32,000 bases of DNA from Chthonomonas sp. (GCA_031425375.1 JANPJF010000006.1:224123-256122), one strand, 5' to 3'. Positions 2,333 to 20,570 are shown, counted from the stretch's first letter. Made by a program: numbers and translations. Notes: generated by a model not told the origin, from the letters alone.

Positions 2333-2355
2333 CCGGCCATAACGTCCACTGGCGA

Positions 2356-4122
2356 TTGGGCCAAAATAGCTCTGTGATTACCCTTGCAGACCAAGCCATC
2401 GAGCACGCGCTTCAGCTCTTCGCGAACGACCATCGCGAAAAAGCTCATGAGATGCTGGTGAAATTAGTCGAGGAAAATCCAGAAAAGGCGAAGGCGGTTC
2501 ATAGCCTCGCAATGATCCTGATGAACATGGATCGGGCGAATGAGGCTCTTCCCCACCTTCTCAAATCAATCGAACTGGAACCCAATAATTCGGTTTTCTA
2601 CTGCAATTTGGGCGCGTACTACACGCGGGTCAATGAACACGAACAATCTCTGATCGAGCTTTTCAAGGCGGTCGAAATCAACCCAAATTACACCGACGCG
2701 ATGCTGAACATCGGGCACGTGATGAGCATGTTGGGGCGATTTGATGAAGCCATCGAATGGGCCTCGAAGGCTCACGCCATCGTGCCTCAAGACGAGCAGC
2801 TCACGATGAACCTGTACACGTACCTGCGCGATCAAGATTTTGAGCGCGGGTTTAAGTTCCTCCGCGAGGCGTTGGTGAAGTATGACCGCCCCCACTTCTG
2901 GCGAGTGGTCTGCAGCGACTCTCTTTATTCAGATCAGATCAGCGAAGAGGACGTGGATGCGGTTCACTTTGAACTTGGGCAGAAAATCGCTTCCGGACTG
3001 CCCGCCACCCGCCGCTACATCAACAAAGCCGACCCGGAACGAAAAATTCGCATTGGGTTTATGTCGAGCGACTTGCGGCGCCATTCGGTGTCGTTTTTCC
3101 TCAAAGAGTGGCTCAGCAAACTCGACAAGGGTCGGTTCGAGATTTATTGCTACCTCGCCATGGGTGCGCGTGATGACATCAGCGACATGTACGAGGAGTT
3201 CTCCACGTTCAAGGTTGTACATGCCTCAAAGATCCAGTCGCTGGTGAACGTGATTTACAACGACGGAGTCGACATTCTGTTTGATCTGAATGGTCTCACC
3301 ATCGGTGGCCGACCGGACGTGCTTGCCGTCAAGCCTGCCCCGATCATCGTCTCGGCCATCGGCTACGCCCACTCCATTGGTCTTGACCGTATCGATTACC
3401 GAATCTCGGACGCAATTACCGACCCCGAGGGTAGCCAAGTTCACTACGCCGAGAAACTTGTCACCCTCGAAGGATGCTTCCTTTGCTACGGCGTGCTAGA
3501 CCCACTCCCGGATGTCGCCGAGATTGAGGACCGCCCCGTCACTTTTGGCTCGTTTAATAACCACCTGAAAATCAATCCGAGCACCGTGAAACTGTGGTCC
3601 GATGTCGTAAAAGCTAACCCGGGATCGGTGCTGGTTCTCAAGGCGCTTGGGCTTCGCCACCCACCCATCCGAAAAGCGGTGCTCGGATGGTTCGATCATG
3701 AAGGCATTGCCGACCGAGTGCGAATCTTGGAGCCGCAAGACGAAGTCGTGGCCCACCAGGCCATGTATAAGGAGATTGACATCACGCTTGACACCTTCCC
3801 CTACAATGGAACTACGACCACGATGGAATCGCTACTCATGGGCGTTCCGGTCATGACCCTTCAAGGCGACGTGCACCGAAAGCGCGTCAGCAGTTCCCTC
3901 CTCATCAACGCGGGATTCCCCGAATGGGTAGCCATGACCCAAGAAGAGTTCGTTGCGCTATCCCAAAAGATGGCCGCTGATATCAAGTCCATCCGAGCCG
4001 GACGAAAAGCCCTCCGCGCGAAGGTCTTCGCATCGCCGGTCATGGACTCCGACGCCTACTCAAAAAAGATGGCAGCGTTTATGGACAAAGCATGGCGCGA
4101 CTACTGCTCGACTAAGGCGTAA
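2356..4122 (+). CDS. TPR-repeat + GT41 (OGT/SPINDLY-like) glycosyltransferase, paralog 2
   Basis: 588 aa. TPR-like N-terminus (LEPNNSVFYCNLGAYYTRVNEHEQSLIELFKAVEINPNYTDAMLNIGHVM). GT41 blocks: DPERKIRIGFMSSDLRRHSV, VDILFDLNGLTIGGRPDVLAVKPAPIIVSAIGY, RIDYRISDAITDPEG, FGSFNNHLKINPSTVKLW, LDTFPYNGTTTTMESLLMGVPVMTL and a terminal WRDYC. The track start at 2356 is TTG, so the exact start is uncertain (in-frame GTG at 2374, and an in-frame ATG at codon 32, position 2449). Confidence 0.85.
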   Translation: MGQNSSVITLADQAIEHALQLFANDHREKAHEMLVKLVEENPEKAKAVHSLAMILMNMDRANEALPHLLKSIELEPNNSVFYCNLGAYYTRVNEHEQSLIELFKAVEINPNYTDAMLNIGHVMSMLGRFDEAIEWASKAHAIVPQDEQLTMNLYTYLRDQDFERGFKFLREALVKYDRPHFWRVVCSDSLYSDQISEEDVDAVHFELGQKIASGLPATRRYINKADPERKIRIGFMSSDLRRHSVSFFLKEWLSKLDKGRFEIYCYLAMGARDDISDMYEEFSTFKVVHASKIQSLVNVIYNDGVDILFDLNGLTIGGRPDVLAVKPAPIIVSAIGYAHSIGLDRIDYRISDAITDPEGSQVHYAEKLVTLEGCFLCYGVLDPLPDVAEIEDRPVTFGSFNNHLKINPSTVKLWSDVVKANPGSVLVLKALGLRHPPIRKAVLGWFDHEGIADRVRILEPQDEVVAHQAMYKEIDITLDTFPYNGTTTTMESLLMGVPVMTLQGDVHRKRVSSSLLINAGFPEWVAMTQEEFVALSQKMAADIKSIRAGRKALRAKVFASPVMDSDAYSKKMAAFMDKAWRDYCSTKA

Positions 4123-4128
4123 TCCAGA

Positions 4129-5919
4129 ATGGCGCAGCTCCCCCAGGAAGATTCTTCGTCGATGCAAAAAGTGCAGCGGCTAATGCTTTTAGGAGACTTT
4201 GCCGGGGCCATAATCCAGTGCGATAAGCTCGTTGAGGCGCATCCAGACGACGTTGTTCTTTTGCTCTTTCGGGCTAGGATTGCCGATCAGGCTCAGCACA
4301 CGGCTTATGCGGAAATCTTCTTTCGACGCGCAGCGACCGCGAGCACCCTTTCCCCGCTCGGGCACCGCCACTTGGCTGCATGGCTGCAGTCTCAGGGCCG
4401 GTCAAATGATGTCCTCGCGGCGGTTGATGATGGGCTAAAGCTCTTTCCCGATGACCTTCCGCTGCTGTCTATAGGGTTCAGAGCCGGAGCAAACGACGAC
4501 AACATAGCTTCCGCAATTCAGCGTCTGGAGGAACTCATACTCACTGAAGATGATGCGCAGGTGCTCTCGGATACGCTAAACCTGCTCAGCCCACTGTTCC
4601 AATCATTCGGAGAATCTGCATTCGTTGAGCGGTTGATCGGGCGCCTCGTTGAAATCGAACCCGCGAGTATTGACAACCGTCGGTGCCAAGCCTTCACGTC
4701 GCTTTACAACGATGCACTAGATCCAACAGATTTGGCGAAAATTCACTTTGAGTTTGGACAAATGGTCGAGGCCAGCATCGCGCCAAAATGGCCCCAGTTC
4801 TCCAACAATCGAAATGCGGATCGCAAGTTGCGGATCGGCTACCTCTCGCCAGATTTCAGAGCCCATGTCGTCGCAAACTTCAATCTGGGTTGGATAGAGA
4901 TGCACGATCCAGATGAAGTTGAAGTAACACTGTACATAGGAAACGCCCCCGACACGGTGACCGAGCGATTCATTGCCGCGTCAGAAAAGCACCGTTTCAT
5001 AAGAGACCTCTCCCCGATCGCAGTTGCGGAGAAAATCAAATCCGATAAGATCGACATCCTCGTTGACTTTGCGGGTCACACAACCGGTAGCTTGACTGCA
5101 ATGCTGGCCTTACGACCCGCTCCGGTCCAGGTGTCCTATGTTGGCTATGCCGCTACGACGGGTCTCTCGCGAATCGACTATCGCATTGTTGATGGCATCA
5201 CCGATCCTGAGGGAGCGGAGGAGCTGGCTAGTGAACGCCTATACCGCCTCGACCGGTGTTTCCTCGGGTACAAGCGGATCACCGAGTTGCCAGCACTAAG
5301 TAGCGCCTTACCTGACGTTCCTACCGCCGGGACGTTCAACAATCTCATTAAGGTATCCGACAGCACCCTCCGCGCCTGGGCAAGGATTCACCAATTGCAC
5401 CCAGAAGCACACCTCATCACCAAATGCCACCTCCCCACCTCTGAACCCCTGAGGCTCTTCAAATTGGCCAAGATGCGCGAAGTTTTAGAGAGGGCTGGGG
5501 GGGATCCTGACCGATTCGATTTGCTACCGTTCATCCTCAGTTATGAAGAGAGCCAACTTGCGTATGGTCAGTTAGACATCGCGTTAGACCCATTCCCATA
5601 CAACGGTACGACGACGACCTTCGAAGCTCTATCTATGGGCATCCCAGTTGTAACCTTACTGGGAACGGACCACCGCTCGAGGGTGAGTGCCAGTATCCTA
5701 GAGCATGTCGGCCTAAACCAATGGATTGCGAATTCGGTCGAAGAGTACGCCGAAATCGCGGCAGACTTGCTCAACAACCGAAAAGAGATTCTTGAGAAGC
5801 GCCCTGCGCTACGGGACTTGCTCCTCCAATCCGATCCCTGCAACCTTTCGGCGCATGTGACAGCTCTTGAGGATGCGTACCGCACCATGTGGCGGGACTA
5901 CTGCGAGGCTAAGGCGTAA
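4129..5919 (+). CDS. TPR-repeat + GT41 (OGT/SPINDLY-like) glycosyltransferase, paralog 3
   Basis: 596 aa. ATG lies 6 nt after the stop of paralog 2. Blocks: ADRKLRIGYLSPDFRAHVV, IDILVDFAGHTTGSLTAMLALRPAPVQVSYVGY, RIDYRIVDGITDPEG, AGTFNNLIKVSD, LDPFPYNGTTTTFEALSMGIPVVTL and a terminal WRDYC. Confidence 0.85.
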   Translation: MAQLPQEDSSSMQKVQRLMLLGDFAGAIIQCDKLVEAHPDDVVLLLFRARIADQAQHTAYAEIFFRRAATASTLSPLGHRHLAAWLQSQGRSNDVLAAVDDGLKLFPDDLPLLSIGFRAGANDDNIASAIQRLEELILTEDDAQVLSDTLNLLSPLFQSFGESAFVERLIGRLVEIEPASIDNRRCQAFTSLYNDALDPTDLAKIHFEFGQMVEASIAPKWPQFSNNRNADRKLRIGYLSPDFRAHVVANFNLGWIEMHDPDEVEVTLYIGNAPDTVTERFIAASEKHRFIRDLSPIAVAEKIKSDKIDILVDFAGHTTGSLTAMLALRPAPVQVSYVGYAATTGLSRIDYRIVDGITDPEGAEELASERLYRLDRCFLGYKRITELPALSSALPDVPTAGTFNNLIKVSDSTLRAWARIHQLHPEAHLITKCHLPTSEPLRLFKLAKMREVLERAGGDPDRFDLLPFILSYEESQLAYGQLDIALDPFPYNGTTTTFEALSMGIPVVTLLGTDHRSRVSASILEHVGLNQWIANSVEEYAEIAADLLNNRKEILEKRPALRDLLLQSDPCNLSAHVTALEDAYRTMWRDYCEAKA

Positions 5920-7673
5920 TGGTTCCATTAGCGGCGTTGATGCGCCTTGTTCAGAGTTCCGGAGTTTTCGCGGCTGCAAAAGAAAGTAGTAGAGAGTTTG
6001 AAGCGGGACGGTCCGATAGGGACTTTTTGCAACTGCATGCAAAGTTGTTAGAGGCAACGGGACGGCGACCTGAAGCTATTGATATCTGCCTTCAGCTTGT
6101 TTCGTCACACCCCCACGACGCGACCCTGATCTCCGAACTAGGTGTACTCTACGAGAATTCCGGCAACTATGAGGCCGCTCTGGAACTCCATGAAAGGGCT
6201 GTCAAAGTCGAACCAACGTCCCAGCGACACGACCTCGCAGTTAGACGGTGTCAAGTTCACTTAAAGGACTTCTTTTCCGGGCTCGATGCGCTCATCGCTG
6301 CAGCAGAGGGCTGTCCAGACGACAGCGTATGCTATGAGAACTTCTACGCCGCAATGCACTTCGCCAAATCGGTTGGCGATCTTCCCAGAGCGACGCAGGT
6401 GGCCAAGCACTTGCAGACGCGGTTTGCACGAAACACGATAGCCGAGCTGCTGCTCCCGGTGCTGGCTTTGTACAGTGAAGAGGAGACCGGAGAGAGTCTT
6501 GATCTCCATCATACGACGTCCATGAAAACCCTGGACCCACGCACTCCATTCGGTCGAGGTACGTACAACTTAAATCAAAATCCAGATCGTGACCTGCGAG
6601 TCGGGTTTATCAGCGCCGATTTTCGGCGACATTCAGTGGCGCACTTCGTGCAAGCTTTGTTATCGCATTCCTCAGACTCGCGTCTACGCGTGATGGCATA
6701 TATGGTTGGCACCGCAGATGACGTCACGCCATCCCTCGTGGGCGCCGCTGACCGCGCCAGGATCTTTGAAGTTACGGATGTAACTCGCATTTGTGCGCAA
6801 ATTCGGGCTGACAAAATTGATGTTTTAGTTGACCTTTCGGGACCGACTTCAGCCACCATCGTCGAAATCATGCTCCGCTCGCCGGCCCCTGTTCAGATAA
6901 GTATGATTGGCTACCCCCACCACTTTGGTTCAGATCGAGTGCCTTATCACGTATCGGACTCGATTGCTGACCAATCAGCTTCGGTAGGGCGCGCCATGAA
7001 ACTGCGGATGAATCGCTGCTTTCTAAACTATGTCCCGTTGGAAGGTCAACCGCCCAGCCCCATTCCGTTGAAGCAGGCGTTCGGCAGTCTAAACAACCCG
7101 TTGAAGCTGGAGCCGAGCGTCCTCGCTGCATGGAGTCAAATCCTGGGGCAGTGTCCTCACGCAAGCTTAATCCTGAAAGGCGCCAGTTACTTTGGAGAAA
7201 GCTACCGACGTGCAGGAGCGAAACGTCTGCATGAGAGCTTCGCTCGACTGGGGGTCGACCCTGAAAGGATCATCGTTCAGGATTACACTCGTGATCATGC
7301 TGAACCATTTGAAACCTATCGCGAAATCTCGGTTGCCCTTGACCCGTTTCCGTATAACGGAACAACGACTACTCTAGAGGCACTCGCCGCCGGTGTACCT
7401 GTCGTGACGCTAGAAGGGCATGATCACAGGAGTCGGGTAGGAGTCAGCGTTCTTTCCCACCTCGGAAAAAGTGAGTGGGTCACGCCAAACATCGAGGGTT
7501 ATGTACAAACCGCCGTGCGTCTGATGGAGGACACCCAGACCCTCTCGCAGATTCGGGAAGATCTTCCAAGTCAGCTAAGGAAGAGCCAAATAATGGATGG
7601 GGCCAGCTATCGAGCTGAGTTCGAGAATCTAGTCCGTCAAGCATGGACTACTTGGTGCGAGAACTCTGACTAG
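5919..7673 (+). CDS. TPR-repeat + GT41 (OGT/SPINDLY-like) glycosyltransferase, paralog 4
   Basis: 584 aa. The start overlaps the stop of paralog 3 (TAATG). TPR-like N-terminus (ISELGVLYENSGNYEAALELHERAVKVEP). Blocks: PDRDLRVGFISADFRRHSV, IDVLVDLSGPTSATIVEIMLRSPAPVQISMIGYP, FGSLNNPLKLEP, LDPFPYNGTTTTLEALAAGVPVVTL and a terminal WTTWC. Confidence 0.85.
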   Translation: MVPLAALMRLVQSSGVFAAAKESSREFEAGRSDRDFLQLHAKLLEATGRRPEAIDICLQLVSSHPHDATLISELGVLYENSGNYEAALELHERAVKVEPTSQRHDLAVRRCQVHLKDFFSGLDALIAAAEGCPDDSVCYENFYAAMHFAKSVGDLPRATQVAKHLQTRFARNTIAELLLPVLALYSEEETGESLDLHHTTSMKTLDPRTPFGRGTYNLNQNPDRDLRVGFISADFRRHSVAHFVQALLSHSSDSRLRVMAYMVGTADDVTPSLVGAADRARIFEVTDVTRICAQIRADKIDVLVDLSGPTSATIVEIMLRSPAPVQISMIGYPHHFGSDRVPYHVSDSIADQSASVGRAMKLRMNRCFLNYVPLEGQPPSPIPLKQAFGSLNNPLKLEPSVLAAWSQILGQCPHASLILKGASYFGESYRRAGAKRLHESFARLGVDPERIIVQDYTRDHAEPFETYREISVALDPFPYNGTTTTLEALAAGVPVVTLEGHDHRSRVGVSVLSHLGKSEWVTPNIEGYVQTAVRLMEDTQTLSQIREDLPSQLRKSQIMDGASYRAEFENLVRQAWTTWCENSD

Positions 7674-8605
7674 TCCAGATAGTCCAACTCTTTAAGCATC
7701 CGAGGGTTCTGCCGCCACTCGGTTCGAACCTTCACAAATAATTCCAGGAAGACCGGTTTGCCCACGATCGCTTCAATCTCGGCCCGAGCCTCGGTGCCGA
7801 TGCGCTTGAGCATCTCCCCGCGCTTGCCGATGAGGATCGCTTTCTGACCATCCTTTTCGACCACCAGAGAAACCAGAATTCGCACAACGTTTGGCTCATC
7901 GGTCCAGTCGTCAACGATTGCGGCTAAGGCGTGAGGAACCTCTTCCCGAGTCAGGCGCAAGGCCTTCTCCCGAACCAATTCCGAGGCTAGACGACGCATC
8001 GGTTGATCGGTCACTTCGTCTTCCGGGTAAAGCATCGGGCCTTCCGGCAAGTGCTCCAGGATCATTTCGACGAGCTTGTCCACGTTGCGAGTCTTAGTGA
8101 GGCTCGTCATCATGATTCGGTCGGTGCCGAACAGCTTCCCGAACCGCTCGTAATGATCTTGAACATCCACCGCTCGCAAAAGGTCCATCTTGTTCAGACA
8201 GAGGATCACATTCGGCTTTGCCTTCCCATCCGCCTCAATCCAATTCTGCTGACGCAGCATCTCGGCGAGGGCTTCCTCGTCCTTATCCGGCTTGCGGGAG
8301 GCGTCCACCATCACGATGAGAGCATCGGCTCCATCCATGCTCCCCTGTGCCGTCTCATTCAGGATCTTGCCAAGGTGGGTGTGAGCCTTATGAACACCCG
8401 GCGTGTCAATCAAGATGAGTTGATAGTCGGCCTCCGTGACAATGCCCAACATACGGTGACGGGTGGTCTGCGCTTTGTCGCTGACAATACTCACCTTCTG
8501 ACCCACCAGAAGGTTGGTCAGCGTGCTCTTGCCAGTGTTCGGCTTGCCAACGAGCGCGACCATTCCGCTGCGGAACGGCTTAGTCTCGTTTTCTAAAGAC
8601 AACAT
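7670..8605 (-). CDS. era: GTPase Era
   Basis: 311 aa. FRSGMVALVGKPNTGKSTLTNLLVGQKVSIVSDKAQTTRHR (G1 and G2), LIDTPG (G3), LNKMDL (G4), and a C-terminal KH-like region (ILVSLVVEKDGQKAILIGKRGEMLKRIG). A GGAG lies 4 nt upstream of the ATG, inside the upstream gene. Confidence 0.95.
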   Translation of the reverse strand: MLSLENETKPFRSGMVALVGKPNTGKSTLTNLLVGQKVSIVSDKAQTTRHRMLGIVTEADYQLILIDTPGVHKAHTHLGKILNETAQGSMDGADALIVMVDASRKPDKDEEALAEMLRQQNWIEADGKAKPNVILCLNKMDLLRAVDVQDHYERFGKLFGTDRIMMTSLTKTRNVDKLVEMILEHLPEGPMLYPEDEVTDQPMRRLASELVREKALRLTREEVPHALAAIVDDWTDEPNVVRILVSLVVEKDGQKAILIGKRGEMLKRIGTEARAEIEAIVGKPVFLELFVKVRTEWRQNPRMLKELDYLD

Positions 8606-11600
8606 TCATCTCCGAGATATCAAAATCGCTGGTCGCGGCTGGCTTGCGGTCGCTTGATCCATCCGGGCGTCGCCCCCGCCGCCGACGGCCCCGATGCCTC
8701 TCGCGGCGCTCGTCTGCGCTCGCATCCGTGGACTCCTCGGCCTCAGTGGCCTGCTCTTCCATCACCGAGGGTCGGAAGACAAGGTCAGTGGCCATCTCTT
8801 CGGTCCAGCCCTCTTCCACCCAATCGTCCACCTTCATGATCGCCACGTCAAAGTGGATGTCGTCTGGGTGGACCGTGTTCTCGGGCCGTTCTGGGAGCTC
8901 GTCGACCTTCAACAGGTCTTCGGACGGGACCTTCAGAATGGCCTCAATCTCGCTCTTCAAACCAATCAAGAACGATTGGGTCTGACCGTCAATTGCGGCA
9001 AACCTAAACTGAGCGCCCTCAATCGTGGCCCACTCTTCGCGCTGCAGATTGTAAGCCGCCGCCTTATCTGGAAGGGCCAAAGTACGAGATCCGCTTCCGT
9101 TGCAATGCAACGTGACGAACGGCGCCCTAGCATGGACCAAGTCTTCGTGGTAATTCCAGACGTGGGCTCCTGCCATTTGGCCGAGCGCACGGAAGAATCC
9201 TGGAGTCACCACCGGCTCACCCAGGAAGACACTCTTCCAAGACTGACCAGGGCTTTCGCCTTTAAACTCTCGCATAACGAAGCTCGGCAATCCGGTCGCG
9301 GAGTACTCGCCAAGCACAATGCCGTCTTCGGGAATCGCGAAGTAGCTGGGCTCGAGTTCGCCGCCGCTGCTGAGCATCTTCTCGGGAAGCGGCTCGCAAA
9401 GCGGATGCTTCTTGTGGACGATATGGGTTCCGCTTCGGCTCGCGAATGGCTGCCGCTTCAAGGCGATGCCGGTCACTTCGCGTACTCGCTCCAGAGCATC
9501 TCGACCTGCGTCAAAGAGACCCGCCGCGTACATCCAGAACAACACCTTGTTGTCGCGCTGGAGGCGCGTCTTAATCGCGCTTCGCACTTCGGGCCGAATG
9601 TCCCACGCATTCAAAAATACGTAAACTTTCGCCTCAGGGAACTGCTCCCGATGGGCTAGGTCGCTCAGAAGATAAAAGCCAGCACTCAGACCTGATCGGA
9701 GGATGGATTCGCGGACATTCTGCACCAACAACGCAAATGCCTTTTGATCCACCAAATACGCCAACGAACGCTCGTCAATGAACACCGCCACATCTGGATC
9801 GCCGAGAGGTACGGCCATGCGATTGACGAGAGCCTTGCGAATCTGAGCCGCACGATCCCAAATTCCGGTTGATTTAAGCCATCCATTGCCCCAGAGGTCC
9901 ATCCAGCAGATGCCTCCAGCGTGGGCCGCCGCCGCTCCGTAACCACGCCAGTGCACTGTTTCAAGAGACTGGGGCGTTTTCATCACCGGGTTGAAATCGT
10001 CCGGCTCGTGCTTCGCCGTGATCGGAGTCTTGAAGTCTTCTTCGCTGATGTACAATTTGCCATTCAGCGCAAAGCTGTCAATCGGCCCAGGGAACGGACA
10101 GGTCCCGCCCGGCTCGCGATTCTTGTAGCTCGGCGGCCCCGCGATGAAGTCCACCTCAGGATTGCGTAAGAGCTTGCCGAGAGAAAGGTGACCACTGGCT
10201 GGATGACTCCACTCGAAGGTGTAGCCATAGCTAACCCCCACGAGGAAATAACCATCACTTGCCTTCTTAGCGACATGGGCGAGCTTGCCGATGCGCTCCA
10301 CCGTGATGTCACTGAGGAACAGGTGGTAATCCACCCACCGGCGGGCTTTCCGTCCCGTCCGAACGAACTCTTCCCCGCTGCGGGTTTCTCCTCGGTATTC
10401 GGGCACGCTGAGCGTCTCGAACTGGGCTTGTCCGTCAAACCAACTGGCGCACAGGGCCACGTTGTCGTTGCGGTAGCGCATTCGAACCCACTCGCGAAAT
10501 TCCAATTGGGCCGCTGGCGACGTGTCGTAGCCCCATCCGGCAGCGAAGAACCACTCTCCGCGCTCTAAATGAACGCCCATCACGTGCTCGCGGTTCGGCA
10601 ACAGGCGCATCTTCGCGACGAAGTCCTCAAGGCAGTGCTCGGCATCGCCCCAGAAGATGTCATCGCAAACACTGGGGTCTCCAAGGCCGCCGCTCTCTGC
10701 GACGTACTTCGCCTTCGGATAGACAGTTTCCCATCCTTGCGCCGCCGTAAACACGACGCGGAATAAGACTTGAGCGTCGGGAGCGACTTCTAGGGACTTG
10801 TTCAACAAGTAGGCGGCGAACTGCACCGATGCGTCGGCGTCGCCATCTCGGTTGACCTCGAGGTCAACGTAGTGAACGATGACTCCAATGCCGGACTCAC
10901 TCGCGTACTTGATCTCCTCAAGCACCGTTTCCATGCGCTTTTCGTCGGAAGCGTTGCCAAAGAAGAAGATGGGCGGGAAGACCTTGCCGTCTCGAACTAG
11001 TGTAGGATTGCCGTCGCGCAGGAACACTTGCGGGGCATCAGAAGGAATCTTGACGTACTCCCTCGGAGCGACAACCGGGGGCTCTGGTTTGACCGGGGCC
11101 GGCTTGGCTCTGGGCTCGCGAACTTGAACCGCCGGGGCATCATTTTCGCTAGTCAGAAGGTCTTTTCGGCCTCGGTTTCGATTACGATCTCGATCTCGGC
11201 CGCGGGCCGGTCGATCCGTCACGACAGCAGACTCTTCGGAGTCTTGATCAACTTCCTCCTGGGCCGCAGGAACGACGCCGCGAGCGCGGAACATAGGGAC
11301 GGGCACAGATTCACCCGCTTCAAGTTCCATCGTCATGAGGTCGGGAACGGCTCGCTCGGTTCGATCAACGGCAGGCTGGGCCTCGTTGCGACGCGGACGC
11401 GCGGGCCTATATTCCGGTGTCGGAGTGGACTGCTGTTCAGATTCCTGTTTGCGCGGTCGGCCGCGACCACGCGTAGGCTGCGCTTCTACCGGCGCAGGCT
11501 CCTTTCGAGGTCGTCCTCGCCCACGCTTTGGCTCGTTTACGGCGGCCTCGTCCACGGGTTTCCGTGGTCGTCCTGGTCCACGCTTTGGAGCTTCCGGGTC

Positions 11601-11780
11601 TGCCGCCACGACCGGATGCTTGCGCGGACGCCCTGGTCCACGTCGAGCCGATTCTGCTGACTCCGTTCTGGCTTCTTGAGCCGGAGCAGGAGTTGGAGCA
11701 GGATTTGCGGGCGCCGTCTCAGCAGGCTTCTCTGCTTTCGGAGCTACGGGCTTGATACGTTTTGAATTGTCGAATAACAT
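8580..11780 (-). CDS. Large cytoplasmic protein: a disordered N-terminal region with four AT-hook motifs, a central GH42-like (beta-galactosidase-like barrel plus trimerisation-like) body, and an acidic then Arg-rich C-terminal tail
   Basis: Uninterrupted 1066-aa ORF with an ATG start and no signal peptide. Hooks are RRGPGRPRK, KRGPGRPRK, KRGRGRPRK and TRGRGRPRK. GH42-like motifs: GWGYDTSPAAQLEFREWVRMRYRNDNVALCASW, and VAVFIDERS...AKVYVFLNAWDIRPEVRSAIKTRLQRDNKVLFWMYAAG. Tail: EEQATEAEESTDASADERRERHRGRRRRGRR. The CDS call is solid. The fold and function assignment is inference. Confidence 0.75.
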   Translation of the reverse strand: MLFDNSKRIKPVAPKAEKPAETAPANPAPTPAPAQEARTESAESARRGPGRPRKHPVVAADPEAPKRGPGRPRKPVDEAAVNEPKRGRGRPRKEPAPVEAQPTRGRGRPRKQESEQQSTPTPEYRPARPRRNEAQPAVDRTERAVPDLMTMELEAGESVPVPMFRARGVVPAAQEEVDQDSEESAVVTDRPARGRDRDRNRNRGRKDLLTSENDAPAVQVREPRAKPAPVKPEPPVVAPREYVKIPSDAPQVFLRDGNPTLVRDGKVFPPIFFFGNASDEKRMETVLEEIKYASESGIGVIVHYVDLEVNRDGDADASVQFAAYLLNKSLEVAPDAQVLFRVVFTAAQGWETVYPKAKYVAESGGLGDPSVCDDIFWGDAEHCLEDFVAKMRLLPNREHVMGVHLERGEWFFAAGWGYDTSPAAQLEFREWVRMRYRNDNVALCASWFDGQAQFETLSVPEYRGETRSGEEFVRTGRKARRWVDYHLFLSDITVERIGKLAHVAKKASDGYFLVGVSYGYTFEWSHPASGHLSLGKLLRNPEVDFIAGPPSYKNREPGGTCPFPGPIDSFALNGKLYISEEDFKTPITAKHEPDDFNPVMKTPQSLETVHWRGYGAAAAHAGGICWMDLWGNGWLKSTGIWDRAAQIRKALVNRMAVPLGDPDVAVFIDERSLAYLVDQKAFALLVQNVRESILRSGLSAGFYLLSDLAHREQFPEAKVYVFLNAWDIRPEVRSAIKTRLQRDNKVLFWMYAAGLFDAGRDALERVREVTGIALKRQPFASRSGTHIVHKKHPLCEPLPEKMLSSGGELEPSYFAIPEDGIVLGEYSATGLPSFVMREFKGESPGQSWKSVFLGEPVVTPGFFRALGQMAGAHVWNYHEDLVHARAPFVTLHCNGSGSRTLALPDKAAAYNLQREEWATIEGAQFRFAAIDGQTQSFLIGLKSEIEAILKVPSEDLLKVDELPERPENTVHPDDIHFDVAIMKVDDWVEEGWTEEMATDLVFRPSVMEEQATEAEESTDASADERRERHRGRRRRGRRPDGSSDRKPAATSDFDISEMNVVFRKRD
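11448..11645 (-). repeat. Four in-frame coding repeats of the AT-hook motif (K/R/T)RG(P/R)GRPRK, spaced 18-20 codons apart
   Basis: Residues 46-54, 66-74, 85-93 and 103-111 of the 1066-aa ORF. For example, plus-strand cttgcgcggacgccctggtccacgtcg is the reverse complement of the sequence encoding RRGPGRPRK. Confidence 0.8.
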
Positions 11781-12472
11781 GGTTCTTTCTTTAAAATTGT
11801 CTGTTCGACCCAGGTTTCTAGGTCGGAGGGGGTGAGTACTAATTCGTTTGGTTTAGATTCGGCGAGAGCCGACTCGGACATCGCGCCATAGGCGACCGCC
11901 ACGGAGAAGGCTCCGGCAGCGTGCGCACTCTCAACATCGTGGATCGCGTCCCCGATGAAGCAAACTTCTGCGGCGTGAACACCGAGCAATTCGCAAGCGC
12001 GGAGAACTGGCTCTGCATGCGGCTTCGGGTGCGTGACATCCGATGCAGACACCGTAACCTGAGCACCTTGAAACTGAGGAAATTCACCTAAAATCCAGGT
12101 GAGTTCGTCTCGGTTTCGACTGGTAACCAGGCCACACGGAATCCCCGCATCAATTACCGCCCGAAATGCCCGCTCGGCAGGCTCCAAGGCGATAATTTTG
12201 TCGGAATGGGCAACGTAACGATCCATCGTGTACCGGACTCTTGACTGAAGGGTCGTCTCAGTGGAGCTGTCCATCCCAAACATCATCATCTGGGCGGAAA
12301 GGGGGGTGCCGATCAGAGACTTGATAAATACATCATCGGGACGGTTGCCGGTGAAGTGCTCGAAAGCATCTCCGAGTCCAGCAACGATCATTGGAATCGT
12401 GTTGACGAGCGTGCCATCTAAATCAAACAAAACGGCGCGAAACTCTCGCGTCTGTAACGTGCACTCCATCAA
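11744..12472 (-). CDS. HAD-IA family hydrolase (phosphoglycolate phosphatase / PpaX-like)
   Basis: 242 aa. Motif I is AVLFDLDGTLVNT. It also has a LVTSRNR Ser/Thr motif and a C-terminal FIGDAIHDVESAHAAG motif. The stop lies 37 nt inside the downstream AT-hook ORF. Confidence 0.85.
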   Translation of the reverse strand: MMECTLQTREFRAVLFDLDGTLVNTIPMIVAGLGDAFEHFTGNRPDDVFIKSLIGTPLSAQMMMFGMDSSTETTLQSRVRYTMDRYVAHSDKIIALEPAERAFRAVIDAGIPCGLVTSRNRDELTWILGEFPQFQGAQVTVSASDVTHPKPHAEPVLRACELLGVHAAEVCFIGDAIHDVESAHAAGAFSVAVAYGAMSESALAESKPNELVLTPSDLETWVEQTILKKEPCYSTIQNVSSP

Positions 12473-12570: not shown

Positions 12571-14220
12571 ATGCAAATTGATCTTCAAAATTTATTGGGC
12601 GCGGGAGCCCAGATCAGTTCGACCGCCCCCACTCTTGGGATGGCGGGTGAGTTTGATCTGGTGCTTGCACAAACCCAATTTGAAGGTGCAAGCCCACCAG
12701 GGGTTGCCCCGCCGCCGTTCCTTCTTGGAATGGTGAGCGCAAATGGGACCGAAGAAGTGAGCCAAATTCAGCCGAATGCTGTGGCCTCAAAACTGGACTT
12801 CCTCCCAACCGACACCGAAGTCAAAATTTCAGAATCTGCCAACGCGCAGAATCCCTCGCTGGACTCCCTCCTCGCGGCGATGAATCTCTCATTCCGCTCC
12901 CTAGAGCCCATCGTGGTGAGCTCAGTCCCACCCGCTGCGGCGAGCATGGTGGTCAGCGCTTCCATCGTTTCTGCGCCCAACACTCAACTCTCGCCTATTT
13001 CATGGGCTCCGGCAGCCATGAAGGTTGCGGATTTATTGGGAGCCCGTGGGGTTCAACATTCTCAAGCCAATCCAACTTTTCACGAAGGAGATTTTGCTCC
13101 CTTAAGCCATCTCTTCCAAAGTGATCCTCTTGAATCGACACTCGTACCTGTTTCTCTTCCGTCGGTGTTGATCGAAGGACTCAGCCGCCAATTTGGCGCG
13201 AAGCAAGTGCTAGACCCTGAGATGGTCTCTCAACTCGGCCTGCAATCAATGAAGGCGGCGCCACTCGGCCCCGGGTTTAGCTCGGTTGATTCGACCACCC
13301 TCGACGAATTTCGAGCCACTCGCCCGGAACTGGCGGTGTCGACACCCGAACGTAAGGTTGCCGACTCTAAACTCCTCGGATCCGAAGTGGCAACAAAGTC
13401 GCCGACCTCAGCTCCGGTCGTTGCTGTTGCTTCGATGACGCAGGGCGAGACCCTTAAGCCAAATGGGGAACCTCAGGTTAAAGCTTTGGGTCTCGAAAAG
13501 AAGAACTCGACCAAGACAACCTCCGCAGCACTTCTACTGGGCGACCCGGAAATCCCGAGCGATGCTGCCGCTGAGAGCCGTATTGACGCCGGTCCAGACA
13601 AGCTTCTAGGCTCCGAAAAGAAAGCCGTTTCGGCAACGACCGTCACTTCAGGGCCATTCGAGAATTCCAACCCAGTTACCGAAGAATTGGAGCTCGTCCA
13701 ACCCATTTCGGAGTTAACCGCGGGTGCCCCAATCGCCACTCGAGAACCACTCGCAACCAGCCGCACTGACGAGGTCGCCAAACCGGCCCAACTCCCCGAG
13801 CGAACTCAGCGTGAAGTAGTTCAGCAGACCGTGGACCGCATCGAGGCCATGGCGATTCAACGCCCGATGAGCCAAGTCGTCATCCACTTGAATCCAGAGC
13901 ACCTGGGCGAGATCGCGATCAAGGTGCGGATGATGGGCAATCGCTCCGAGGCCGAAATCACGGCAACCGATGAGCGCGTCGTACAGGCTCTCGACGGCAA
14001 CCGCCCTCAACTCGTTCAAGCCATCGAGAGTAAGGGCTTTGCGCTCAGCTCGCTGACGATGCAATTCGGCGGCGAACGCGGCGACCAAAACCCCGCCCAG
14101 CGCGAAGATTTCGCCCGAGCCATGAACAGTTTCCAAAACGCGTCAACTGACGGAGGCGAAACCGCCGCCGTCCCGACCTACGGATCATCGCAAAACGGCG
14201 GTCTGAACTTAGTGATCTAA
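12571..14220 (+). CDS. fliK: Flagellar hook-length control protein FliK
   Basis: 549 aa. Long, low-complexity S/P/A/T-rich N-terminal and central region. The C-terminal Flg_hook-type domain reads VVIHLNPEHLGEIAIKVRMMGNRSEAEITATDERVVQALDGNRPQLVQAIESKGFALSSLTMQF. It sits directly upstream of flgD. Confidence 0.8.
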   Translation: MQIDLQNLLGAGAQISSTAPTLGMAGEFDLVLAQTQFEGASPPGVAPPPFLLGMVSANGTEEVSQIQPNAVASKLDFLPTDTEVKISESANAQNPSLDSLLAAMNLSFRSLEPIVVSSVPPAAASMVVSASIVSAPNTQLSPISWAPAAMKVADLLGARGVQHSQANPTFHEGDFAPLSHLFQSDPLESTLVPVSLPSVLIEGLSRQFGAKQVLDPEMVSQLGLQSMKAAPLGPGFSSVDSTTLDEFRATRPELAVSTPERKVADSKLLGSEVATKSPTSAPVVAVASMTQGETLKPNGEPQVKALGLEKKNSTKTTSAALLLGDPEIPSDAAAESRIDAGPDKLLGSEKKAVSATTVTSGPFENSNPVTEELELVQPISELTAGAPIATREPLATSRTDEVAKPAQLPERTQREVVQQTVDRIEAMAIQRPMSQVVIHLNPEHLGEIAIKVRMMGNRSEAEITATDERVVQALDGNRPQLVQAIESKGFALSSLTMQFGGERGDQNPAQREDFARAMNSFQNASTDGGETAAVPTYGSSQNGGLNLVI

Positions 14221-14223
14221 CCC

Positions 14224-14856
14224 ATGTCTGTCAATTCTATCGATCCAATGGCCTCCCAATTTTTTGGAGCGACCCCCGTCAAGCAGAAATCTGCGCTGGA
14301 CATGACTACCTTCATTCGCCTGCTGACGGTTCAGCTCGCGAACCAAAATCCGCTGGAGCCCATGTCAGACCGTGACTTCTTCGCGCAAATGGCGCAGCTC
14401 GGTCAAGTTCAAGGTACCGATAAGATGACCAAGCAGTTGCAAACTCTTCAGGCCAGCACGCTTATCGGCAAGACCGTCCGGGCAACGATCACCCGCGCTG
14501 AAGGCGCCCCGGCCGAGGAAATCATCGGACGCGTCATCGGCATGGACGTTAAGAACGGCGAGCAAATTTTGAAGGTGCAGGAAGCCGACGGCGGGCTGGT
14601 GGACGTCAAGTTCGATAACATTACCAGTTTCACCGACATCCAAGTTCAACAAATTCCCACGCCGACGCTCTCGGATGCCAGCCAACTTATTGGCCGCAAC
14701 ATCAAGTTCTGGGAAAACCAGGAATCAGATGGCACTCTGGTGGAGGGACAAGTGGTTCGCGCCTCGATGGTCAACGGCGTTGCCATGCTGACGGTTCGCA
14801 CTCCGGCGGGCGAAGTGCAGGTTCGATACGACTCGGTTCGAGAAGTCCTCTCCTAG
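14224..14856 (+). CDS. flgD: Flagellar hook capping / assembly protein FlgD
   Basis: 210 aa. Has the conserved FlgD N-terminal motif FIRLLTVQLANQNPLEPMSDRDFFAQMAQLGQVQG. Starts 3 nt after the fliK stop. Confidence 0.9.
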   Translation: MSVNSIDPMASQFFGATPVKQKSALDMTTFIRLLTVQLANQNPLEPMSDRDFFAQMAQLGQVQGTDKMTKQLQTLQASTLIGKTVRATITRAEGAPAEEIIGRVIGMDVKNGEQILKVQEADGGLVDVKFDNITSFTDIQVQQIPTPTLSDASQLIGRNIKFWENQESDGTLVEGQVVRASMVNGVAMLTVRTPAGEVQVRYDSVREVLS

Positions 14857-14901
14857 AATCGTTGAACTCAACTCCAACGTCATCAACACGGAACACGACC
14901 C

Positions 14902-15276
14902 ATGAGTAGCCCAATTCAAAATAATCGAATCGCGGATCTGCTGCAACAGCAGCAGATCCAGCCGGGCACGTCCAAACCGGTCGCTCCTGCCGATCAGAAT
15001 GCGTTCAGCGAGATTCTAGAAAATCGGCTTAAGGTGAGCGGCCATGCTGAAACTCGGCTCAATAGTCGAGAGATCCAACTCGATCGCGCCGCATGGGAGC
15101 GCGTGATTGAAGGGGTGGAGAAGGCAGCTCTCAAGGGCGCGAAGGAATCTCTCGTCTTGGTGGACGACATTGCGCTTGTGGTCTCGGTGAAAAACAAGAC
15201 GGTAATCACGGCGGTGGACCAGGCGAAACTGAAAGACAATGTGTTCACCAACATTGACAGCGCCATCGTGGTCTAA
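14902..15276 (+). CDS. Small flagellar operon protein of the TIGR02530 type
   Basis: 124 aa. SGHAETRLNSREIQL...VEKAALKGAKESLVLVDDIALVVSVKNKTVITAVDQAKLKDNVFTNIDSAIVV matches my recollection of the family pattern (SxHAxxRLxxRxI ... KG ... VITA ... NVFTNIDSAV). It occupies the classic flgD-flgE position. Confidence 0.7.
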   Translation: MSSPIQNNRIADLLQQQQIQPGTSKPVAPADQNAFSEILENRLKVSGHAETRLNSREIQLDRAAWERVIEGVEKAALKGAKESLVLVDDIALVVSVKNKTVITAVDQAKLKDNVFTNIDSAIVV

Positions 15277-15287
15277 ACCCTCGGATC

Positions 15288-15313
15288 GGTTTGTTTTTGA
15301 ACTCAAACAAACC
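15288..15313 (+). other. Perfect 9-bp stem hairpin (GGTTTGTTT, 8-nt loop, AAACAAACC) 12 nt after the TIGR02530-type gene stop
   Basis: Read directly from the sequence. The stem is AT-rich and no U-tract follows, so it may be a weak attenuator or processing site rather than a strong terminator. Confidence 0.3.
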
Positions 15314-15533
15314 TAAAGTAGATTGCCAACGTTAAGGCCTAACGATCCCCTGAGTTCCCCCGATATTAATACTGGAATCATCCAAAGGCTCCGAACAAGA
15401 AGAAGAAGCTAGTGACCGGAACGGTGGTCTCGACCCCCGTAAGTCCTGCGCAATAAGGCCGAATGCCTGCGCACGAAAAGCAAGCTCCCTCCTCTTCGAA
15501 GAGTCTCGAAAATCGAAACGAGAAACGAAGACT

Positions 15534-19708: not shown

Positions 19709-20570
19709 CCTGGCCCTCGCGGTGTCTCTGGGGCTGGCGCATTCCGCCCTCGCCCAAGTGCCCGATGTCAGCATCGTCACCGATGTGCGTTCGACCTTGC
19801 AGTTCTCTCAAAAAGACGCCAAGACACGATTTTACGATCCGTTCGGGCGGATCAGTACGGTAACTCTCCAGCTCATCTTGGAGGGCTTCTATGTAGTTCG
19901 ATTGAGCGAGCGATTCGCCCGTATCCCAGGCGACACGATGGGAAAGCAACTTGAATACGCCTATTTCGAGTACCCCGGCCTATGGCGCGTCGGTGTAATC
20001 CCTGCCCGATTCGGGCGCGGATGGCTCATCCGCGAATACGGCCTCGGCGGAGAAATACGAACCAATCTTCTCTTTGACAACCTTCCCTTCTCGATCGGCG
20101 CGATAGACGACGGCGAGCGCCGCACCCGCGGCGTCATGGCGAGGGCCGGGGGTCGAGTGGGGGTGAGCTTTGCCTCGGGCAACCACTTCGCCGCTTCTGG
20201 CACCTCACTCACCGCCATCCGCAGCCCCGAAGAGGCCCCTGGGATTGGTCGTGGATACAAGACTTTATATGGCGTCGACGCGTCTGGCCGCTTTGGACCT
20301 TGGCGTGGTAGCTTTGAGGCGGTGAGTCTCAAGCAAGGCCAAACGAGCCTCGACAAAGATGAAAAAGTCCTAGACTTCGAGCTGGCCTACCAGCTCTCAC
20401 CCCTTGGAAATGAGTACCGAATCGGCTACGCGCGCACCTTGCGCGGTCGATCCGACCATCTCCGCGCCGAGGTTGAGGCACCCGTAGATCAGAAGCTAAG
20501 CATTACCGGCCAGTTCCGGCTGGACTCGGGTCGAGCGCTCTACGCCATCGGCCTCCGCGCCCGATTTTGA
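19686..20570 (+). CDS. Secreted hypothetical protein, putative outer-membrane beta-barrel
   Basis: 294 aa. Signal peptide MRRCVRVSLALAVSLGLAHSALA-QV. Alternating hydrophobic pattern with many G/R/Y residues. The C-terminus ends in YAIGLRARF, and a terminal aromatic residue is typical of OMPs. Overlaps the hisS end by 23 nt. I recognised no named family. Confidence 0.5.
   Translation: MRRCVRVSLALAVSLGLAHSALAQVPDVSIVTDVRSTLQFSQKDAKTRFYDPFGRISTVTLQLILEGFYVVRLSERFARIPGDTMGKQLEYAYFEYPGLWRVGVIPARFGRGWLIREYGLGGEIRTNLLFDNLPFSIGAIDDGERRTRGVMARAGGRVGVSFASGNHFAASGTSLTAIRSPEEAPGIGRGYKTLYGVDASGRFGPWRGSFEAVSLKQGQTSLDKDEKVLDFELAYQLSPLGNEYRIGYARTLRGRSDHLRAEVEAPVDQKLSITGQFRLDSGRALYAIGLRARF

Follow-up and report, generated by a model that had tools for sequence, protein, structure and literature searches.

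Why should a bacterial protein carry AT-hooks of the kind known from DNA-binding proteins on a body that resembles a glycosidase? This question is raised by a 1066-aa ORF located between the genes for a HAD-IA hydrolase and the GTPase Era in the 32-kb window, i.e. the whole stretch of DNA analysed here. An earlier note had described its product as a cytoplasmic protein with four AT-hooks and a GH42-like body, and the ORF, the basic runs and the body motifs quoted there were all found as stated (Table 1). Our favoured reading, to which we assign a probability of about 0.45, is that of a nucleic-acid-tethered GH42-like scaffold or enzyme, which would be a housekeeping, cytoplasmic and Armatimonadota-specific protein.

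Table 1 Features of the 1066-aa protein and its immediate neighbours (all on the minus strand).
Feature	Position (nt)	Strand	Residues	Basis or remark
era (GTPase Era)	7670..8605	-		26-nt overlap with 3' end of the ORF; conserved downstream partner in Fimbriimonadales
Whole ORF	8580..11780	-	1-1066	ATG start; disordered N-tail, GH42-like three-domain body (predicted), disordered C-tail
C-terminal motif SDFDISEMNVVFRKRD	8583..8630	-	1051-1066	F1062 and R1063 invariant
C-tail Arg run RERHRGRRRRGR	8670..8705	-	1026-1037	charge/composition
Acidic C-tail segment	8706..8825	-	986-1025	net charge -12
Domain 3, C-terminal beta-sandwich as in GH42	8901..9200	-	~861-960	AF2, Foldseek
Domain 2, GATase-like/ThuA-like	9201..9815	-	~656-860	counterpart of GH42 trimerisation domain; Foldseek, ThuA PF06283 in homologs
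GH42-like (beta/alpha)8 barrel	9816..11045	-	~246-655	AF2 and Foldseek against GH42; family profile against PDB
E580 codon (KLYISEEDF), inferred nucleophile	10041..10043	-	580	C-terminal end of predicted 7th barrel strand (DSSP of model)
E409 codon (in HLERGEWF), predicted acid/base	10554..10556	-	409	aligns with Glu of GH42 'NE' (GNE/DNE); preceding residue Gly, not Asn
N-terminal disordered tail	11046..11780	-	1-245	P/A/E/R/K-rich, alternating basic/acidic blocks; AF2 pLDDT, charge blocks
Second basic run RGRDRDRNRNRGRK	11163..11204	-	193-206	at the family's N-tail Arg-run position (RRxRRRR)
Motif SVPVPMFRAR	11280..11309	-	158-167	family consensus DLPxPxWR; R165 invariant in 94 orthologs
AT-hook 4 TRGRGRPRK	11448..11474	-	103-111	canonical R-G-R-P core
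AT-hook 3 KRGRGRPRK	11502..11528	-	85-93	canonical R-G-R-P core, basic flanks
AT-hook 2 KRGPGRPRK	11559..11585	-	66-74	P-G-R-P variant
AT-hook 1 RRGPGRPRK	11619..11645	-	46-54	GRP core, P-G-R-P variant
HAD-IA hydrolase	11744..12472	-		37-nt overlap with start of the ORF; upstream in about half of orthologous loci

An architecture of this kind could in principle result from an assembly error or frameshift that fused a hook gene to a glycosidase gene, or could belong to an exported enzyme such as a flagellar type III substrate. A divergent fliK-flgD-flgE cluster indeed adjoins the locus and is found again at about every second orthologous locus, and disordered N-termini are typical of type III export substrates. 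We nevertheless regard this explanation as extremely improbable. An independent MAG contig of a GTDB species representative (JAYUVF010000039.1) encodes the same 1066-aa architecture with four hooks and a 98%-identical body, and in 74 full-length orthologs the N-tail runs on into the body without a break; since this second ORF is joined by about 80 syntenic orthologs, a fusion artefact is excluded and the reading frame is independently confirmed. The conserved N-terminus (MLFD.../MPRKK; MLFDNSKRI among close orthologs) backs the annotated start. In line with the proposed cytoplasmic location, the protein contains no hydrophobic segment, signal peptide or transmembrane segment (maximum Kyte-Doolittle 19-residue mean of 1.07), and the flagellar neighbourhood is missing from the Chthonomonadales and Armatimonadia loci despite the presence of the tails there. 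The chromosomal setting is one of housekeeping genes.

Searches with the protein itself against Pfam, NCBIfam and PDB sequences returned nothing at E ≤ 1, and its assignment therefore depends on a predicted structure and on transitive homology. The AF2 model of the body (pLDDT 84, pTM 0.87) aligns over its full length with GH42 beta-galactosidases in Foldseek (3tts, 4uzs, 1kwg and others; E about 4e-22 to 3e-19, TM ~0.6-0.67), a profile of the protein's family matches GH42 PDB sequences at E = 4.8e-13, and distant homologs score above the gathering cutoff of Pfam GH42 (e.g. P0262 with 48 bits). The ortholog of Armatimonas rosea is named 'GH42 N-terminal domain-containing' in UniRef. Hence, as modelled, the body is a GH42-like three-domain fold, which bears out the suggested TIM barrel and glutamine-amidotransferase-like domain, the latter also by ThuA matches in distant homologs. 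The protein shares this architecture with the GH42 beta-galactosidases/alpha-L-arabinopyranosidases of Thermus thermophilus A4 (1KWG), Bifidobacterium (4UNI, 4UZS) and Bacillus circulans (3TTS), and profile-to-sequence homology is detectable in barrel strands 1-5; however, identity amounts to ~13% and the protein fails the Pfam GH42 model. The next Foldseek neighbours were GH164, GH167-type, GH112 and GH14 structures, of which the GH164 beta-mannosidase 6T5O (E ~1e-14) and the GH112 galacto-N-biose/lacto-N-biose phosphorylase 2ZUS (E ~1e-11) are weaker multi-domain matches, less similar in structure and sequence than GH42 and without disordered tails.

Characterised GH42 enzymes likewise lack disordered charged tails, whereas the protein studied here has ~245 aa of such sequence at its N-terminus and ~80 aa at its C-terminus. 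AF2 pLDDT values fall below 50 for most of aa 1-217 and most of aa 987-1066, which fits intrinsic disorder of both tails. As a whole, the N-tail is only mildly basic (net charge ~+11) and represents a block polyampholyte, while the Arg runs have charges of +6 and +7. A basic N-tail with ~20% K+R was found in essentially all full-length orthologs (80 species genomes), and basic disordered N-tails together with Arg-rich C-tails are common to all three cultured classes of Armatimonadota. Arg runs flank the body in 84/87 (N-tail) and 85/87 (C-tail) of the proteins of at least 1000 aa matching a Chthonomonadales query, and sampled sequences of the Armatimonadia clade have the same layout. Among 74 Fimbriimonadales orthologs, 71 keep the C-tail Arg run and 73 a C-terminal end of the 'FRKR' type. 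In the AF2 model, the short conserved motifs are not docked against the body.

The four AT-hooks were found in the disordered N-terminal region at exactly the residues given in the earlier note. The tail's own composition predicts ~5e-6 occurrences of RG[RP]GRPRK instead of the four observed, and no further AT-hook occurs in the six frames of the window. Since the hooks differ in their codons (nucleotide identity of 63-73%) and no DNA tandem repeat was detected by TRF across the region, it is selection, not recent duplication, that maintains the peptide motif. The array has a net charge of +14. Its hooks have a single origin in a small subclade (11 of 106 leaves), in which 3-6 copies per protein are retained. 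The hook extension is thus lineage-specific, as had been asked, but the basic tail beneath it spans the whole phylum; judging from the sequences, the hooks are not the defining feature of the protein but a single-origin elaboration of a basic disordered tail conserved phylum-wide. The GC content of the hook-clade loci (52.5-56.7%) is not markedly lower than that of the other loci (58.5 ± 4.7%; genome ~57% GC).

Hooks with a GRP core are shared with eukaryotic HMGA1/HMGA2, and hooks 3-4 (KRGRGRPRK) correspond essentially residue for residue to what we take to be the first HMGA hook. In contrast to HMGA, the present array is bacterial, consists of four copies at regular intervals of 18-20 residues, of which hooks 1-2 have a P-G-R-P instead of the palindromic R-G-R-P core, and is part of a ~1066-aa protein with a large folded enzyme-like core. 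HMGA hooks place the GRP core within (P/G)RGRP with one or two basic flanking residues and are unstructured without DNA (PMC4482583). A further parallel is CarD of Myxococcus xanthus, likewise a bacterial protein, in which four RGRP-type hooks lie beside a highly acidic stretch in an intrinsically disordered region. According to PMC8156234 (citing Garcia-Heras 2009), this HMGA-like domain binds AT-rich DNA, and in experiments histone H1 or the disordered basic region of H1 could take its place; the interchange of hooks and H1-like tails in CarD by experiment thus has a counterpart in the natural variation of our orthologs. However, CarD has its hooks C-terminally on an RNA-polymerase-binding Tudor-like domain (PF02559), which Pfam did not detect in the present protein, whose hooks are N-terminal on a glycosidase fold; the tails are analogous only, without homology.

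Is the body still an enzyme? Its acid/base Glu takes the GH42-equivalent position and a second Glu is found where strand 7 ends, E580, which may be assigned as nucleophile by position; the two are 171 residues apart, presumably the same spacing as between E141 and E312 of 1KWG. The doubt expressed earlier about the canonical NE motif was justified for the Asn of this clan GH-A motif, which is Gly here, but not for the Glu, since E409 of HLERGEW aligns with the acid/base. Because this Glu is present and E580 and Y552 are invariant (as are E409 and D582) among 106 close orthologs, the body of this copy looks catalytically competent. On the other hand, 18 of 97 Fimbriimonadales-type sequences have E409 replaced by G, Q, R, N, S, I, L, P or D, or E580 by L or D. 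Synteny was checked for ten of these 18, and era lies downstream in 10/10; at the loci of P0122 and P0130, the HAD gene is present upstream as well. Such repeated losses set the family apart from GH42. As these syntenic orthologs lost E409 or E580 yet kept their tails, the conserved role seems to tolerate loss of catalysis. The suspicion that the body may be non-catalytic hence applies to relatives, not to this copy with its intact residues.

If the protein were simply a cytoplasmic glycosidase from a divergent GH42-like family, its tails having no specific ligand (serving solubility, spacing or condensates) and its hooks having arisen by incidental low-complexity drift, this would fit the intact catalytic residues invariant in 106 orthologs, the HAD phosphatase encoded upstream at about every second locus and the wider family, whose members are typical carbohydrate-active enzymes (forms with a signal peptide or a CBM as well as stand-alone ~700-aa proteins, one of which adjoins GH127 and GH38 genes). 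We consider this quite improbable, as position and charge pattern of the tails are conserved over three classes, their short motifs contain invariant residues (R165, F1062, R1063), the hooks are held at 3-6 copies by peptide-level selection, and the catalytic Glu was lost repeatedly among orthologs but the tails never. Could the substrate instead be sugar-modified nucleic acid, e.g. glycosylated DNA or RNA bases, to which the tails bring the active site? Glycosidase active site and nucleic-acid-type tails are combined in one protein, the Asn normally reading the sugar 2-OH is absent, and R555, K575 and R612 of the barrel domain, invariant in close orthologs and the wider family, could bind an anionic substrate. 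This idea is purely speculative and highly improbable, given a housekeeping instead of a defence or phage-related context and the dispensability of catalysis in many orthologs.

A serious alternative, albeit on the unlikely side, concerns RNA. Both canonical and extended AT-hooks are able to bind RNA, which the latter bind ~10-fold better than DNA, and Arg-rich/RG-type runs bind RNA as well (PMC4615771). In ~76 of 80 Fimbriimonadales species genomes, also where the ortholog has lost catalysis, era has the same orientation as the ORF and adjoins or overlaps it, and RRRRRRGGRGRGRR-type runs occur on both sides of the body phylum-wide. The protein might thus be associated with RNA or ribosomes, its Arg-rich/RG runs and hooks binding rRNA or structured RNA, and work with Era in small-subunit maturation or RNA turnover. 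In the C-terminal half of RNase E, Arg-rich patches that bind nucleic acids and short conserved motifs for docking are set in long disordered stretches, and a scaffold of that type would resemble our protein in its disordered Arg-rich layout and its genomic link to the RNA-maturation gene era; without a nuclease domain or sequence similarity, this likeness is functional speculation. In one Chthonomonadales locus, the next gene downstream is recO, which usually follows era. Nevertheless, era linkage is confined to Fimbriimonadales and absent from Chthonomonadales and Armatimonadia loci, the protein has no RNA-binding or RNase domain, its hooks include KRGRGRPRK, of the canonical type whose best-documented target is the DNA minor groove, and the K/P/A-rich H1-like tails of many orthologs are typical of DNA binders.

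We thus return to the tethered GH42-like protein as our preferred reading. Its core would probably form a trimer, by likeness to GH42 enzymes, and in this copy retains the putative residues of a retaining glycosidase (acid/base E409, Tyr552 and nucleophile E580). Through the tails, the folded core would be anchored to a polyanion, with nucleic acid as the likeliest candidate; most members of the phylum would use histone-H1-like K/R/P/A-rich sequence and Arg runs for this, and the target may be DNA or the nucleoid. The invariant motifs ..PxPx[FW]R in the N-tail and ..VVFRKR[DE] at the C-terminus presumably recruit a partner. Because orthologs that lost a catalytic Glu keep tails, motifs and the adjacent era, the conserved role is likely that of a tethered scaffold or a binding function, and this lineage appears to have kept glycoside hydrolysis as an activity that is not indispensable. 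Our literature search found no description of a bacterial glycosidase with AT-hooks, in agreement with the view that a DNA-tethered glycosidase-like architecture is new. As far as its sequence reveals, the protein pairs a sugar-cutting enzyme fold with tails of a nucleic-acid-binding type, a pairing previously unreported, in the little-known phylum Armatimonadota.

Protein X combines a GH42-like body with disordered tails at both ends, and its reading frame bears out what the earlier note had read from the sequence alone: the four AT-hooks, the second basic run, the acidic stretch near the C-terminus with the basic sequence after it and all quoted body motifs are present in the translation (see table). 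Each hook has a GRP core with basic residues on both sides, the definition of an AT-hook used here (PMC4615771, PMC4482583). Hooks 3 and 4 contain the canonical palindromic (P/G)-R-G-R-P as GRGRP; in hooks 1 and 2 the sequence is GPGRP, which departs from this palindrome and keeps the GRP core (P-G-R-P) and the basic flanks. The pattern RG[RP]GRPRK is seen four times in X, compared to ~5e-6 occurrences expected from the tail's own amino-acid composition, and none of the reading frames of the 32-kb window contains a further hook-like motif. The spacing between hooks is 18-20 residues. As the hooks differ in synonymous codons (over 30 nt, 63-73% of the nucleotides are identical) and no repeat was detected in the region by Tandem Repeats Finder, recent tandem duplication of DNA is ruled out as their source, indicating that the peptide motif was kept by selection.

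Features of protein X, of the window and of other loci (L, genome loci carrying orthologs or relatives of X; P, homologous proteins)
Feature	Located in	Coordinates	Strand	Remarks
ORF of X	window	8580-11780	-	1066 aa, ATG start
Hook 1	X	aa 46-54	-	RRGPGRPRK; RG[PR]GRPRK at aa 47-54
Hook 2	X	aa 66-74	-	KRGPGRPRK; RG[PR]GRPRK at aa 67-74
Hook 3	X	aa 85-93	-	KRGRGRPRK; RG[PR]GRPRK at aa 86-93
Hook 4	X	aa 103-111	-	TRGRGRPRK; RG[PR]GRPRK at aa 104-111
Basic run	X	aa 193-206		RGRDRDRNRNRGRK
Acidic stretch	X	aa 986-1025		net charge -12; followed by RERHRGRRRRGR
Four tandem TPR + GT41 genes (OGT-like, PF13844)	window	596-7673	+	578, 588, 596 and 584 aa
Flagellar hook cluster fliK, flgD, flgE	window	12571-16811	+	divergent from HAD-X-era
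294-aa ORF	window	19686-20570	+	no Pfam match at E<=1e-3, no NCBIfam match at E<=1e-5
239-aa ORF	window	25432-26151	-	no Pfam match at E<=1e-5
73-79 aa ORF	L084	9342-9563		no Pfam match in locus tables
73-79 aa ORF	L085	10635-10859		no Pfam match in locus tables
73-79 aa ORF	L086	9825-10064		no Pfam match in locus tables
Gene after era	L002	10311-11231		306 aa, weak ZipA_C match
P0262 (697 aa), GH127, GH38	L089	6001-13268		P0262 directly upstream
Catalytic-loss orthologs of X	L047, L061, L064, L068, L074, L076, L081, L083			also P0122-P0137

That X is an artefact or an exported protein is extremely improbable. The reading frame recurs in an independent MAG contig (JAYUVF010000039.1, locus L004), which encodes a 1066-aa ORF with the same MLFDNSKRI start, four hooks and a body 98% identical to that of X, and the tail is contiguous with the body in 74 full-length orthologs from species-representative genomes, which excludes a gene fusion or frameshift. 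No signal peptide was found in X, in agreement with the earlier reading, nor any hydrophobic segment (maximum 19-residue Kyte-Doolittle mean 1.07).

X could not be assigned to a family directly by sequence: searches of Pfam, of NCBIfam and of the PDB sequences gave no match at E<=1, and the assignment had to go through distant homologs, a family profile and a predicted structure. All 305 close homologs are annotated as 'hypothetical' and come from Armatimonadota MAGs, and the wider family comprises 3434 cluster representatives at E<=1e-3 in a library of 1.8 billion proteins. Distant relatives exceed the gathering score of 21 of the Pfam GH42 model (PF02449, Glyco_hydro_42) with 48.4 (P0262), 29.9 (P0205) and 26.3 bits (P0236), these three of ~700 aa, and with 22.6 bits (P0160), and one distant relative also touches ThuA, a GATase-like fold, in Pfam. 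The profile of the wider family matched crystallised GH42 beta-galactosidases among the PDB chains (E=4.8e-13). An AF2 model of residues 236-1007 (pLDDT 84, pTM 0.87) aligned over its whole length (~770-800 columns) with 26 GH42 chains, including 3TTS, 4UZS, 4UNI, 5XB7 and 1KWG (E 4e-22 to 3e-19, probability 1.0, TM 0.58-0.68, ~13% identity), followed by weaker matches to GH164, a carrageenan-active GH42-like enzyme, GH112 phosphorylase and GH14. All three domains of the GH42 fold are seen in the predicted model: the (beta/alpha)8 barrel and the GATase-like trimerisation domain, both anticipated by the earlier note, and, in addition, a beta-sandwich. X is hence a member of a GH42-related superfamily by fold and transitive homology, not by the Pfam criterion; we do not file it under GH42 itself because it is not matched by the Pfam model and has no Asn in the NE motif. 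The stand-alone P0262, a distant relative of the X body, is encoded directly upstream of GH127 and GH38. Its position in such a typical glycan-degradation cluster indicates that the wider family consists of ordinary carbohydrate-active enzymes.

The doubt raised previously about the acid/base residue, for which the NE motif was not obvious, could be settled by HMM alignments, in which the family's '..tgEWf' aligns with 'GNEYG' (E164 of 4UNI) and 'DNE' (1KWG) of GH42. The Glu of HLERGEW (E409) is thus the acid/base equivalent, and only the preceding Asn of the clan GH-A 'NE' motif is absent, replaced by Gly408, which does not vary among close orthologs and is found in most members of the wider family. 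In the AF2 model, E409 lies three residues after barrel strand 4, Y552 comes after strand 6 and E580 (KLYISEEDF) sits at the C-terminal end of strand 7 (predicted strand 576-582). The distance of 171 residues between E409 and E580 is presumably the same as that in the catalytic pair E141/E312 of 1KWG. As modelled, the placing of E409, Y552 and E580 is the clan GH-A layout, with E580, by its position, as the putative nucleophile. Among 106 close orthologs, no substitution is seen at E409, Y552, E580, D582, H531, R555, K575, R612 or D628. With acid/base, Tyr and putative nucleophile in place and invariant, X, as encoded in the window, looks catalytically competent.

Catalytic residues are lost in 18 of 97 Fimbriimonadales-type sequences, E409 being substituted by G, Q, R, N, S, I, L, P or D and E580 by L or D; E-Y-E-D is kept in 75 of the 97 and in all hook-bearing proteins. 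Orthologs with a lost catalytic Glu still have the tails and the FRKR motif at the C-terminus, and era followed X in every case checked; synteny was confirmed for ten of them (P0122 and P0130, both with the HAD-X-era arrangement, and the eight affected genome loci). Judged from the sequences, the catalytic Glu was replaced repeatedly, in different ways and independently. Such repeated loss with architecture and synteny kept argues that the conserved role of the family tolerates loss of hydrolysis, which points to a scaffold or binding function of tails, motifs and folded core. The suggestion that the body may be non-catalytic thus does not hold for X, whose E409 and E580 are invariant in its 106 orthologs, and applies to those relatives in which a Glu was lost. 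Enzymatic activity is predicted to be dispensable in the family and retained in most lineages, including X. We consider it unlikely that X is a plain cytoplasmic glycosidase with non-specific tails; the intact active site would be in keeping with that explanation, and the tolerated loss of hydrolysis speaks for a role of the tails.

Full-length AF2 modelling left most of residues 1-217 and 987-1066 at pLDDT <50 and free of secondary structure, and the hooks lie within this unstructured region (pLDDT 36-45 over aa 1-220, a proxy for disorder only). Docking of the conserved tail motifs in cis on the body found no support, as both tails stay below 50 in this model. The scan of species-representative genomes gave 80 loci, whose titles read Fimbriimonadales or Armatimonadota in nearly all cases. 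An N-tail of 150-400 aa (~20% K+R, 15% D+E, 43% P/A/S/T) is present in essentially all full-length orthologs; of the 74 full-length Fimbriimonadales orthologs, 71 have a C-tail with an Arg run and 73 end in ..[VM]FRKR[DE]. An alignment of 94 sequences shows no variation at R165, located in SVPVPMFRAR of X (family consensus DLPxPxWR), at F1062 or at R1063, so that each tail holds a short phi-phi-F-R-x-R motif. Chthonomonadales, including Chthonomonas calidirosea, have Arg runs such as RRRRRRGGRGRGRR at the N-terminus of 84 and at the C-terminus of 85 of 87 proteins, and the same tail layout is found in Armatimonadia, including Armatimonas rosea, whose ortholog is named 'GH42 N-terminal domain-containing' in UniRef. 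On this comparison of sequences, basic tails appear as a conserved peculiarity across three cultured classes and hooks as a local variant. The question of lineage specificity can be answered in the affirmative within the homolog survey: AT-hooks occur in only one neighbour-joining clade (11 of 106 leaves, 3-6 hooks per protein). Two members of this clade show zero hooks; in P0008 (locus L010) they lie upstream of the start as called, and P0016, with 930 aa, is probably another truncated sequence. Outside the clade, the N-tail is K/R/P/A-rich and histone H1-like. GC content gave no clear signal (52.5-56.7% in the hook clade vs 58.5 +/- 4.7% in the others). Armatimonadota-type X also appears under the labels 'uncultured archaeon', 'Methanoregulaceae archaeon', 'Archangium gephyra', 'Chloroherpetonaceae', 'Fibrella' or 'Akkermansiaceae' (L015, L037, L056, P0284, P0408, P0410). 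L015, L037 and L056 have era downstream of X too, and all six are probably mis-binned or mislabelled MAG contigs.

In Myxococcus CarD, according to PMC8156234, a four-hook HMGA-like domain beside an acidic stretch binds to AT-rich DNA, and histone H1, or the disordered basic region of H1, can take over the function of this domain; AT-hooks are called rare in bacteria there. The natural interchange of hooks and H1-like tails among X orthologs resembles these domain swaps. Unlike CarD, X lacks PF02559, the RNA-polymerase-interacting Tudor-like N-terminal domain, and its folded part is entirely GH42-like; hence X is not a CarD homolog and its tail is merely analogous. The parallel is the strongest, albeit indirect, argument that the tails of X may bind nucleic acid. 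Since AT-hooks and Arg-rich segments bind RNA too (PMC4615771), both DNA and RNA are possible ligands.

We suggest, with a probability of roughly 0.45 for the mechanism as a whole, that X is a nucleic-acid-tethered cytoplasmic protein with a GH42-like, probably trimeric core. Its two polycationic disordered tails would tether this core to nucleic acid, the four AT-hooks of the hook subclade would add minor-groove binding to AT-rich DNA, and the invariant F-R motifs may recruit a partner, with glycosidase activity probably retained. Binding, oligomeric state, activity and biological role are what we infer here.

The window is ordinary chromosome, in which four TPR-GT41 paralogs are followed by era, X and a HAD-IA hydrolase gene on the reverse strand and, beyond the latter, by the divergent fliK-flgD-flgE cluster, hisS, feoB and others. 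X shares 37 nt with HAD and 26 nt with era. In ~76 of 80 Fimbriimonadales genomes, era lies directly downstream of X on the same strand, often with overlaps of 1-4 nt; only about half of the 80 loci have the upstream HAD gene and only about half the flagellar cluster, whose divergent arrangement with HAD-X-era likewise recurs in about half of the genomes. As era was not found next to X in the Chthonomonadales or Armatimonadia loci examined, the link is order-specific, and Era was rejected as a universal partner. Chthonomonadales have a conserved ORF of 73-79 aa after X instead (~64% identity between loci; followed by recO in L086), which lacks a counterpart both in the window and in the loci of Fimbriimonadales; no conserved neighbour was found in Armatimonadia. 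The era link is thus suggestive, not decisive. An RNA- or ribosome-associated partnership of X with Era is conceivable though rather doubtful: it would agree with the synteny in Fimbriimonadales and with RNA as a possible ligand of the tails, and the linkage stops at the limits of that order. In one Fimbriimonadales genome (L002), the gene after era encodes a protein weakly matching ZipA_C. ZipA_C is the FtsZ C-terminal-peptide-binding domain, and we take the tail motifs of X (..PxPxFR.., ..VVFRKRD) to be loosely similar to the FtsZ C-terminal peptide.

The GT41 paralogs of the window have N-terminal TPR repeats and converge on era. They found no support as a sugar-cycling link to X, being absent from both other Fimbriimonadales loci listed (L001, L002). 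The HAD protein was considered as a beta-phosphoglucomutase, a hint of phosphorylase chemistry, and turned out to be only a generic HAD-IA member (PpaX/PGP-like), far below equivalog cut-offs. That X is an enzyme acting on glycosylated nucleic acid would unite its apparently intact active site with its tails; we regard this as very improbable.

What is directly established for X comprises the ORF, motifs, fold, conservation, synteny and, by proxy, disorder. Enzyme fold and AT-hook motif are already known; their combination, its phylum-wide conservation and the drift toward a pseudoenzyme are new. In the literature searched, no bacterial glycosidase fold is described that carries AT-hook or H1-like tails, as the earlier note had supposed, and X stands as a second, independent bacterial case of AT-hooks beside CarD, the documented one. 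Architecture and evolutionary pattern are surprising, and the function is entirely inferential. A bolder reading, which we hold to be unlikely, is that Armatimonadota converted a GH42-type glycosidase into a multivalent organiser of the nucleoid or of RNA that is specific to the phylum: a trimeric hub with six disordered tails (H1-like, Arg runs or AT-hooks), whose active site decays to a pseudoenzyme or, more radically, acts on sugar-modified nucleic acid. If this is true, X would represent a new type of chromatin or ribonucleoprotein scaffold in bacteria.

A glycosidase fold permanently equipped with tails of nucleic-acid type is here conserved throughout a phylum that has been little studied, and in one order it is linked to era. 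The loss of catalysis with the architecture kept provides a natural series for studying the change from enzyme to scaffold, and the family is experimentally tractable in the culturable species Fimbriimonas ginsengisoli, Chthonomonas calidirosea and Armatimonas rosea. If the tails bind DNA or RNA, X would be a candidate for an Armatimonadota-specific organiser of the nucleoid or of ribonucleoprotein.
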